Source: Microthyrium microscopicum
Lineage: Eukaryota
Reading direction: 5' to 3'
DNA: 64,000 nt
NCBI GenBank assembly: GCA_010405405.1
Contig: MU004234.1
Location: forward strand, 106,993-170,992
In this document: positions 57,302 through 59,972 of the stretch, piece by piece
Numbering within the stretch: position 1 is the stretch's first letter
How the letters are laid out: every line of letters starts with the position of its first letter
Translations under genes and position numbers: made by a program
The notes under the pieces: generated by a model
Seen by the model: only the letters and a program-made list of their open reading frames with translations
Told to the model about the DNA's origin: nothing
The model's database searches: none

Positions 57302-59972
57302 ATGGCTGAGAATCCCAGAGCTAACGACGAGTTGGATGCCGCGATGGCGAAACTGCACTTGGAAGATCAGGGTCGTCAAACAGCAAACCAGAATATTAGA
57401 AGTAGTATGCAGTTCACTTCCTTCTCTGGACATAGCAATATGGGTGTGCAAGTGGGACAAAACTCGGGAAACATTGAACACCATCACCATGCCGCGCCAG
57501 GTGAGAGATGGAGATTCACAATCCCCTACTTTGAAAAGTTTGCTTATTGTATGAATACAGAGCCACCTGAACAACCTCCGAAATGTGGGATGTTCATACC
57601 CTTTCCTCGCTCCGACTTTGTTGGCCGTTTGGATATAATGAAGGAACTGGACAGCAGGTGTTCTCAATCGGGGCACTGGACAGCGCTGGCTGGTCTCGGT
57701 GGCGTCGGGTAAGCACGCTACTATCTGAAAGCTATTGTCAACACTAACATAGACTAGAAAGTAGCAGATAGCAATTGAGTACTGCTATCGTCTTCGGAAG
57801 TCATCACCCAGCACCTGGGTCTTTTGGATACATGCGAGTAACGAGACCCGATTCGAACAGAGCCTTCAAGATATTGCAAACTACTTGAAGCTTCCTGGAC
57901 GTAAAAGCCCAGCGACCAATTACTACCAGTTATTCGAAGACTGGCTACGAGACGATAATCAAGGCAGTTGGTTTGTTGTGCTTGACAACGCTAACGATGA
58001 AAAGTTCCTGATGAAAGGCGTCAAACCTAAACAACACCAAGATCTTGGTACTGGACGCGGAAGTGCTTCGACTCCTGCTCCTACTAAACGTTTGCGCGAC
58101 TTTCTGCCCTTCACACAGCGAGGCTCTGTCTTAGTCACTACCCGAAGTCGCCACGCTGCCATTCAGCTAGCTGGTTTTCAACGTCTGATTGCAGTAGGGG
58201 TGATGGACAATGGTGAGGCTACACGGCTTCTTCAACAGAAGCTAGGCAGTCAGTACACGAAGCAGGACTTCTCTAAACTTGCTGAGTACCTTGAGTACAT
58301 CCCCCTTGCCATGATTCTTGCAGCTGCGTATATTTCGCGTCGAGAGAACCGCTGTTCAGTCAACGAGTATCTTGAGAACTTCAAGTCGAGTGATGGACAA
58401 AAGATGGAGCTCTTAGCCGATGAAGGTGAGTACCAGCCTCGCGACCGTGAAGCCGTCAATTGCATTTTTAGGACGTGGAGCATCACTCTAAACACCATAA
58501 GAAAAGCTCACGACTCAGCATTCCACTTGCTATCGTCCATAGGCTTTTTTGATCCACAAGGGATCCCGGATTCTCTGATGTTTGTCCCGTTCGCATTCCA
58601 GGAAATTGCCAATGTGAAGGAACTGACAGGAGGTCCTCCACGGCCGGATGTTTTCAAGGCCCTTGACGCCGCGGATCCAAAGTATCTGGTCAACGCTAGA
58701 AAGAGATTTGAGTCAGCTTTACAGGTGCTCAGAGACTATTCGCTCATCACGGCGACCACTGACCCAGGGGTTTTCGAGATGCACAGGCTGATTCGGTTGG
58801 CCGTTCAAGAGGAACTCAAAAAGAGTAACTTGTTCTACAAAGCTTACCATCGGAATGTAGACAGCCTGCATTGGAAGTACTTTCAGTCCAGCTTCGAATT
58901 AGGGAAACAGTACGAGGATATAAAATTGTGGTCTTCACTTTTTCCTCATTTCAAGATACTCACCGAAATTCAACCTAATGCTACTCGATACCTATACCTT
59001 TGGCTTCATATTTTACAATGCACAGCATATCTGGCTTTTCTTCGAGGACGCATCTTTGATGCGAAAGCCCTCGCTTTGGTGGGATACCAAGCATGCACGG
59101 CATCCCAAGCCTTCGGGTCAGAATCACTTGAAGCTGCTCGATTTCAACGACAGATCGGGCAATGCTATGCCGATGAGTTCCAGTATTTAGAAGCCGAAAA
59201 GCAATATCAAGCGTCACAAAGCAAAATTTCGAGTTTGCTTCAAGGAATGGATATTTGCTCAGACCAAGGCCAGCATTTATTGGCAACATGGATGGACATT
59301 ATGTATAATCTAGCGATCATGCAAAACGGTCAACGAAAATTGCAAGAAGCCGAGAACACTTTGTCAGATGCATCTGTATTGGGCTCAAAGTTGTCAGAGA
59401 AGTATCGTTACGTGGTACTTAAAAACGCCGATGCTTTGGTCCATTGTTATGCTTCGCAAGAAGGGCTCGTGCCACTCCCGCTCGGAGACGATTCTTCTGG
59501 GCTGGGTTATGTGGTCACTGAACATGACACGAATGATGACACGAGTGTCAGTGTTGCAAAACTTCTCGCGGAAACCACCTATCTGGAAAGCGTTAAGCTG
59601 CTGGGAAGAAACGACCCTCGGACAATGCGCAGACGTTGGATGAGAGACTTCCTGTCTGGTGAGCCAGCGAAGCATCAGAAGCTTGCAAAAGATGCGAGGG
59701 GCCTTCTTGCAAGGCTAGAGAAGCACTCAACTAAAGATCATGTGGAGATACCAGATACCATGCACTTCTTGGCCACTCTTTTGAAGGAGTCGAGACAAGA
59801 TGGCCCAGCTCTAGAAGTCATGGAGGAATGCGTTCCGGTAAGTATCAGGCTACGTGGGAAAGATAACTATCGTACGAAGCAATGCGTGTTCGCCTTGGAT
59901 GTGTGGCGACATGAGCGCGCGGGCAGAGTGCAGTCCGGAGATAATAAGTGGTTTAGATTGTTTCTGTGTTGA
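57302..59972 (+). CDS. NLR 1: PP motif / NB-ARC / TPR (PNT1-like); in-frame TAG in Walker A, possibly a pseudogene
   Basis: FSGHSNMGVQVGQNSGNI; DFVGR; AGLGGVG|K*QIAIEYCY; FWIHAS; VVLDNAND; VTTRS; IPLA; FEMHRLI; C-terminal TPR-like repeats (LGRNDPRT, PDTMHFLA). Confidence 0.88.

Follow-up and report, generated by a model that had tools for sequence, protein, structure and literature searches.

A premature TAG codon in the Walker-A loop of a transcribed NLR gene of Microthyrium microscopicum: probably a young null allele in a predicted amyloid-signalling cluster

The fungus Microthyrium microscopicum carries, in a stretch of 64,000 nucleotides (nt) of its genome (NCBI GenBank assembly GCA_010405405.1, contig MU004234.1, positions 106,993 to 170,992 of the forward strand; the whole stretch is called the window hereafter, and its first letter is position 1), a predicted NLR gene, here named NLR 1, which is interrupted by an in-frame TAG at 57762-57764 (+). 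This TAG is codon 118 of NLR 1 and stands at the place of the serine or threonine of the Walker-A loop. Judged from its domains, NLR 1 would be a PNT1-like NLR, in which a PP amyloid motif at the N-terminus is followed by an NB-ARC domain and a C-terminal part of TPR-like character. The stop is found in the DNA as well as in the mature mRNA, and the disabling lesion of the gene is thereby confirmed. NLR 1 is probably a young loss-of-function allele of such a receptor, still transcribed and spliced. This reading is favoured because the lesion is a single one, lies one step from a TCG codon, leaves the rest of the NB-ARC region undecayed, is accompanied by a broken sister paralogue (NLR 2) and was found in none of the relatives scanned. 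A recent null allele was one of several interpretations offered in the original prediction, which was made from the sequence alone, and it is the one that these five lines of evidence favour.

The stop codon in the gene and in its message

The coding sequence of NLR 1 begins at ATG 57302, immediately downstream of an in-frame stop, and after splicing it ends at codon 118, so the product has 117 amino acids (aa). Exon 2 closes with ...GGC GTC GG at 57708, the following intron opens with GTAAGC from 57709 and its AG lies at 57756-57757. The mRNA across the joint, which falls after the first two letters, reads GG-A AAG TAG CAG ATA GCA ATT GAG, that is, G-K-stop-Q-I-A-I-E. Walker A of NLR 1 is GLGGVGK followed directly by TAG, and an intact G-x-x-G-x-G-K-[ST] is missing. 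The hydroxyl group of the Walker-A serine or threonine binds Mg in P-loop NTPases. The reading frame that continues behind the stop at 57765 comprises 735 codons without a further stop and closes with the TGA at 59970-59972.

Recognizable domains are present on both sides of the stop. The PP motif in exon 1 (residues 39-59, window 57416-57478) matches Ses_B (PF17046) with 26.7 bits at a cut-off of 23.2 (E 5.2e-06). In the downstream frame, DUF7779 is found with 29.7 bits, above its cut-off of 27, and the Walker B, TTR and IPLA motifs line up with the family consensus in the alignment. The Pfam NB-ARC match in the same frame gives 11.8 bits (E 0.14) and lies below the cut-off of 23.5, and the TPR matches are sub-threshold too (TPR_12, 18.3 bits at a cut-off of 30.1; TPR_10, 15.8 bits).

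Public contigs were placed on window positions 55600-63800. One of them (run X5, 2752 nt) spans 57233-60093 with 0 differences to the window, TAG included, and its joints in the coding region are exactly 57501-57560 and 57709-57757, both GT..AG and base-exact to the predicted introns. The label RNA for X5 is a guess, intron-free contigs being taken as spliced RNA. Because a contig from which the introns have been removed is spliced RNA, the splice model of NLR 1 is base-exact and a mature message with UAG exists; NLR 1 is transcribed and correctly spliced. A DNA contig (run X4, word depth ~1030), possibly the source of the window, also carries the TAG with 0 differences. X5 and X4 come from different studies, and the identity over ~7 kb suggests that X5 and the window are from the same strain, which would make X5 an independent data set and not an independent isolate. 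These are contigs and not reads, so minor isoforms and variants are hidden in them, and their depth is no gauge of expression or of nonsense-mediated decay (NMD). Runs X6 and X7, labelled as another organism, gave a few short low-depth pieces that are 100% identical to the window, none of them over the TAG, as well as two pieces, of 36 nt each, that belong to unrelated long contigs; they look like carry-over and were not used.

Other splice choices do not repair the loop. Each of the six AG acceptors in 57753-57772 meets a stop within 7 codons, acceptors 57780 and 57801 lead to stops at codons 37 and 30, and the first open alternative, acceptor 57812, deletes the P-loop. No donor/acceptor pair restores GK[ST], and all 9 open-frame combinations found delete the Lys-Ser of the loop. 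The splicing of the intron at 57709-57757 into G-K-stop-Q, the stops behind the nearby acceptors, the truncated product of 117 aa and a frame of more than 730 codons to 59972 had all been read from the letters in the original prediction and agree with these data. Of the two findings that were named there as able to overturn it, a sequencing error is excluded by the DNA contig and the RNA contig of another study, which both have TAG, and a splice pattern with an intact P-loop is excluded by the enumeration.

Origin and age of the lesion

In the protein database, 299 homologues of NLR 1 of the NB-ARC/DUF7779/TPR type were found; many of them have PF00931, a variety of TPR families is present among them, and the best are 33-42% identical. 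Among the 120 homologues listed, 74 have the G.GG.G motif, which is followed by KS in 61 and by KT in 10 (71/74) and then by Q-[L/I/V] in 70 of the 74. The TAG thus stands exactly at the Walker-A Ser/Thr of a family that nearly always has GKS or GKT before Gln, as had been stated in the original prediction. The remaining 46 are mostly open reading frames (ORFs) of metagenome contigs that start behind the intron at this place; many metagenome ORFs of the family begin with "...R-KSQLAIEY" or "M/V-FWIHAS", so they are without Walker A. Metagenome contigs were also scanned with the pattern K-TCN-Q-x-A-x-E...W-x-[FL]-W, which gave at least 119 stretches, 118 of them usable and one too short upstream. 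Among the matches listed, the Ser codon is TCG in 58, TCC in 24, TCT in 20 and TCA in 16 of the 118, and an AG acceptor lies 1 nt before the Lys codon in 109 of the 118. Since so many relatives have the acceptor at the same place, the phase-2 intron that splits the P-loop is a family trait. The same scan gave 0 stretches with TAA or TAG at the Walker-A Ser place against at least 119 with TCN, so stops do not recur at this position in the family.

A single C-to-A change separates TAG from TCG, the commonest family codon at this place. In the simplest case, the lesion would have arisen by this change in a TCG codon for the Mg-binding Ser of the Walker-A loop. Translation would then stop after 117 residues, no working receptor would be made, and the downstream frame would be open merely because there has been too little time for further damage. 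Such an allele would be a product of the ordinary birth-and-death turnover of fungal NLRs and is probably polymorphic among strains; the second receptor of the cluster is damaged as well, with the effector ORFs staying open.

Three other origins of the codon were considered and rejected. Repeat-induced point mutation (RIP) does not make C-to-A changes, and the two NLR paralogues share only 48% DNA identity. Deamination of a CpG in TCG would give TTG and not TAG. An alternative genetic code is contradicted by HeLo-2 and NLR 2, two other genes of the cluster, which end at TAG where their homology ends; a nuclear reassignment of TAG is not known from filamentous fungi. No protein more than 42% identical to NLR 1 or NLR 2 was found in the database, although the Vps23 model of the same genome is present there, and this absence of both NLRs fits gene models that were dropped as broken.

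The state of the downstream frame bears on the age of the stop. Of the possible substitutions in this frame, 4.6% make a stop, and a neutral frame of 2205 nt would remain open at P = 0.05 up to ~3% divergence without indels, or up to ~1.1% if indels are counted in, at a rate ten times lower than that of substitutions. As a neutral open frame of such length survives only ~1.1-3% divergence, either the stop of NLR 1 is young or the downstream frame is being kept. A crude measure of decay was taken from 67 homologues, namely those of the 74 motif-bearing ones with at least 430 residues behind the motif, a fairly tight group and not an unbiased sample; 115 alignment columns are conserved in 85% or more of this group. 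These homologues deviate at 6.8 of the columns on average (standard deviation 4.0, maximum 19, n = 67), and NLR 1 with 23 and NLR 2 with 40 deviations both exceed every one of them. However, 16 of the 23 deviations of NLR 1 share their column with a deviation of NLR 2; these therefore predate the split of NLR 1 and NLR 2, lineages that each kept a long frame. Only 7 are private to NLR 1, a number that resembles that of a working family member. NLR 1 and NLR 2 are, to judge from their divergence, old paralogues (38% aa identity, 260/684 aligned). Their synonymous sites are saturated (dS undefined by NG86 and 2.46 by LWL85), and dN/dS is uninformative.

Published cases make a null allele of this kind plausible. 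The amyloid NLR NWD2 loses its activity through the P-loop mutations K83N and K83R, and in het-s strains nwd2 is itself a pseudogene, interrupted by premature stops (PMC4344463, in excerpt); several Podospora NLRs are reported as strain-specific pseudogenes caused by stops, frameshifts or transposable element (TE) insertions (PMC13449251, in excerpt).

Several points weigh against a young null allele. The mRNA of NLR 1 is present and fully spliced, though one might expect NMD of a message whose stop comes as early as codon 118 of ~850. The nonsense codon lies within the Walker-A GKS triad and NLR 2 has a missense change in the same triad, which would be a coincidence if the hits were random; this was noticed post hoc and carries little weight. 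In both ancient paralogues a frame of more than 725 codons persists, which requires that each was inactivated recently. The context of the stop matches a leaky consensus (see below). Finally, the reading is based on one isolate and on homologues that are at most 42% identical.

Other readings of the interrupted gene

Four biological alternatives give the interrupted gene a function. In the first, which in part had been offered in the original prediction, it is the truncated 117-aa product that has the function, as a free PP-motif seed, a decoy or a buffer for the two HeLo effectors encoded next to NLR 1; it would be the NLR-side counterpart of the exaptation of het-s. The spliced mRNA that encodes the peptide exists, its PP motif passes the Pfam cut-off, and the adjoining effector HeLo-1 has a matching C-terminal PP motif, with both HeLo ORFs intact. 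Moreover, isolated PNT1(1-31) forms prions spontaneously in Podospora and triggers killing by HELLP, according to the section of PMC7885112 concerned. The same experiments make a free peptide beside intact effectors a self-killing hazard, which is more likely to be selected against. This hazard beside two HeLo genes is a reason to doubt that the peptide accumulates, and also the one reason for a bench test. Stand-alone relatives of 36-116 aa were not found with exon 1 as the query, a search of low power, given that annotation seldom includes ORFs of such length and that a match in the word index takes at least three 5-mers in common. Besides, an allele for a short product needs no 735 open codons unless it is simply young. 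A functional peptide is therefore regarded as unlikely. It is improbable, in a stronger sense, that the nonsense allele has made an expressed gene for a free PP protein beside two intact HeLo killers with PP or PP-like tails, which would be a natural [pi]-like prion element if the protein accumulates. If this were true, the free PP protein would be a stochastic self-trigger of cell death, or an allorecognition determinant against strains with an intact receptor, and it would mirror from the receptor side the origin of het-s from the effector side.

The second alternative, leaky or programmed readthrough of UAG-CAG-AUA to give a small regulated amount of full-length receptor, is considered very improbable. 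CA(A/G)N(U/C/G)A behind a stop is the leaky-stop consensus of yeast, where its strength is known, and UAG-CAR-YYA is the leaky context of tobamoviruses. Near-cognate decoding of UAG gives Tyr or Lys, and also Gln by tRNA-Gln (the last in PMC13192750, as excerpted). The six bases after the stop of NLR 1 fit the yeast consensus, the first of them being C, and the downstream frame is fully open; the tobamovirus context is not matched, as the fourth base is A. The original prediction had pointed to this fit and had allowed that it might reflect just the Q-I codons, and both halves of that remark hold. The fit is real, and it is largely imposed by the family, in which Gln is near-invariant at this place and L, I or V follows, so that only the third base of that codon is free. 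From the codon usage of the genome alone, 22-34% of such contexts would fit (22% of L/I/V codons end in A, and ATA makes up 34% of Ile codons), 13 of the 80 Gln codons of the two NLR frames fit as well, and so do 9 of the 118 relatives with a sense codon, among the matches listed. There is no unusual downstream structure; the fold of the 122 nt from the Lys codon on has a z of -0.30, and 76 of 200 shuffles fold as well. Neither Gln nor Tyr or Lys would replace the Mg-binding Ser/Thr, and P-loop mutants inactivate the related amyloid NLR NWD2 (PMC4344463, as above). NLR 1 differs from leaky-stop genes in that its stop has no counterpart in the relatives scanned (0 stretches with a stop, at least 119 with TCN), is followed by no special structure and would give a readthrough product without the Walker-A Ser/Thr.

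The third alternative is a functional product of the downstream frame without a P-loop, serving as a ligand sponge or NLR regulator and made by way of a minor splice form or an internal AUG. The 9 donor/acceptor pairs that skip the stop with an open frame would permit it; donor 57704 with acceptor 57765 is one of them, donor 57709 with acceptor 57812 another. NLR 2 likewise has an 864-codon open frame without a P-loop through an acceptor 2 nt downstream, and both paralogues keep long frames. Yet the RNA contig has the canonical joint only, though contigs drop rare forms, and the out-of-frame stretch in NLR 2 is ~20 codons, so that its openness is unremarkable. Downstream of the stop, no AUG occurs in frame until codon 83 of the open frame, where Walker B has already been passed. 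Re-initiation after an ORF of 117 codons is inefficient. Such a product must be called a long shot.

Still fainter is the chance that the frame is opened by stage-specific A-to-I editing of UAG to UGG, a mechanism of the premature-stop-corrected (PSC) pseudogenes of Fusarium. U-A-G is the preferred triplet of fungal editing, a genomic TAG is the one interruption in the frames of the edited genes, which are expressed (PMC10776026 and PMC11156358, both in excerpt), and restoratively edited TAGs sometimes derive from non-Trp codons (PMC10776026, same excerpt). NLR 1 resembles the PSC pseudogenes of Fusarium graminearum in these respects, with a TAG in an expressed, otherwise intact frame and U before the A. 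In short folding windows, the A is in a hairpin loop with P(unpaired) up to 1.00, but in longer windows it is as often paired (P(unpaired) 0.37-0.53). At the stop the RNA contig shows A and not G; it is a contig of unspecified life stage in which minor variants are hidden. According to PMC11156358 (in excerpt), editing is documented in Sordariomycetes and one Pezizomycete only and was not found in the Eurotiomycete and the Leotiomycete examined, and the host of NLR 1, a Dothideomycete, belongs to another class than Fusarium. A Trp at the position of the Mg-binding Ser should not give a working P-loop, and the scan of relatives gave no stop there, against at least 119 stretches with TCN. For these reasons, the suggestion of a receptor gated by readthrough or editing finds little support: its context is largely imposed, no special structure follows, the RNA contig has A, and Ser/Thr would not be restored.

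An artefact of sequencing, assembly or gene modelling is negligible as an explanation, with the TAG present in a DNA contig and in an RNA contig whose joints are base-exact.

The cluster, its neighbours and known systems

The region at 54-64 kb of the window is, as predicted from its ORFs and domains, a four-gene amyloid-signalling cell-death cluster with two HeLo genes on the minus strand and two NLR genes on the plus strand (Table 1). The P-loop is broken in both receptors, and the ORFs of the two effectors are open.

Table 1. Features of the predicted cluster (window coordinates)
Feature	Position	Strand	Evidence
HeLo-1, ~249 codons, two introns (splice sites inferred, model only), canonical C-terminal PP motif	54170..55121	-	Pfam HeLo 62.9 + 30.4 bits
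HeLo-2, 265 codons, one 56-nt intron, divergent from NLR 1	55737..56590	-	Pfam HeLo 57 + 31.5 bits; spliced ORF intact
Intron upstream of NLR 1, probably in its 5' untranslated region (UTR); membership in NLR 1 transcript inferred	56823..56879	+	RNA joint 56822->56880, GT..AG
NLR 1 5' UTR intron, 89 nt	57145..57233	+	RNA joint 57143->57233 (cut +1), GT..AG; shorter side 29 letters
NLR 1 exon 1, start codon and PP amyloid motif	57302..57500	+	Pfam Ses_B PF17046
NLR 1 intron 1, 60 nt	57501..57560	+	RNA joint 57497->57558 (cut +3), GT..AG
NLR 1 exon 2, linker and first half of P-loop (...LAGLGGVG)	57561..57708	+	Sequence, RNA contig cover
NLR 1 intron 2, 49 nt, phase 2, splits P-loop just 5' of Lys codon	57709..57757	+	RNA joint 57707->57757 (cut +1), GT..AG
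NLR 1 735-codon frame: rest of NB-ARC (Walker B WFVVLDNAND, TTR, IPLA), DUF7779, TPR-like C-terminus	57765..59972	+	ORF, Pfam, alignment
NLR 2, old NLR 1 paralogue with PP motif	60964..63670	+	Ses_B 24.8 bits; DUF7779 match, weak TPR matches

The last exon of HeLo-1 matches Ses_B with 32.4 bits and its spliced model is open, so that NLR 1 has an adjoining effector with a matching C-terminal motif. On the C-terminus of HeLo-2, Pfam gives no Ses_B match; a degenerate PP-like stretch, N-H-A-I-Q-A-G-S-N, is present there. Three lesions lie near the 5' end of NLR 2. GTG stands at the place of the NLR 1 start ATG, and an ATG in frame follows only at codon 15. In Walker A, a GAG at 61434-61436 puts Glu in the place of Lys, which gives G-E-S. 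Furthermore, one nt is deleted at 61494-61495, so that the normal frame breaks off at codon 156. If the exon is taken to start at 61435, by use of an AG acceptor that lies 2 nt further on, the 864-codon frame mentioned above is obtained, in which ~20 out-of-frame residues replace the P-loop helix. The cover of NLR 2 in X5 is thin, consisting of short pieces with a depth of 2-5.

The arrangement is similar to PNT1/HELLP of Podospora anserina and CgPNT1/CgHELLP/CgSBP of Chaetomium globosum, where a PP-motif NB-ARC/TPR receptor adjoins an effector with a C-terminal PP motif (PMC7885112, cited section), and the same PP architecture is seen here, with Ses_B/PP on NLR 1, NLR 2 and HeLo-1. The present cluster differs in having two effectors and two receptors, both with broken P-loops and at most 42% identical to any named NLR, and its effectors match Pfam HeLo (PF14479), where those of the known clusters are of the HELL type. 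It also recalls nwd2 beside het-s, in which an amyloid NLR, divergent from its HeLo partner, is stopped prematurely in natural strains (excerpts of PMC4344463 and PMC13449251). However, according to the same excerpts the cause in nwd2 is a transposon scar and HET-s has lost killing, whereas NLR 1 has a point nonsense mutation and the ORFs of its partners look intact. The NLR pseudogenes of the Podospora species complex, which arose by stops, frameshifts and TEs and are intact in some strains (PMC13449251, in excerpt), are comparable as well, polymorphism of NLR 1 being only probable.

As a plain null allele, NLR 1 would be a further example of the fast birth-and-death of fungal NLRs, and the hits in the Walker-A triad of both receptors fit the idea that loss on the receptor side is the usual way of disarming death modules. 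It also calls for caution in annotation, as both receptors of the cluster are missing from the public protein set. In addition, the locus is a natural experiment in which the break in a receptor falls right at the border of prion-forming tail and ATPase, with the gene transcribed and spliced and the effector frames intact. Whether a free NLR amyloid tail seeds cell death in its native host is testable at the NLR 1 locus.

Some minor observations concern the surroundings of these genes. The 5' leader of NLR 1 is long, with two introns in the RNA and a 4-codon upstream ORF (ATG 57241 to TGA 57255); apparently it extends into the promoter or the 5' end of HeLo-2, which is transcribed divergently. 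The intron of HeLo-2 is retained in the X5 RNA contig, which may be antisense or unspliced RNA, since the strand cannot be read from a contig. A CT..AC RNA joint at 63058-63110 (X5, depth 5.5, one contig) is a minus-strand intron inside the 3' part of NLR 2 and suggests a spliced antisense transcript. Ordinary fungal genes occupy 8-53 kb of the window, including those for a P450, a BAR/SH3 protein, a cysteine desulfurase-like protein, Vps23, GH16, a mitochondrial carrier and others, together with a HET-domain gene (19860-21545, +), which belongs to a further cell-death/incompatibility family, and a Piwi-domain (Argonaute) gene (32389-33947, +). The exons of the Vps23-like gene match a protein of Microthyrium microscopicum with 100% identity. 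There are no tRNA genes in the window. Positions 1-8000 are very AT-rich, with a guanine + cytosine fraction of 0.20-0.30 against ~0.47 elsewhere, and have the look of an isochore that borders the gene-rich part and was affected by RIP or derived from repeats.

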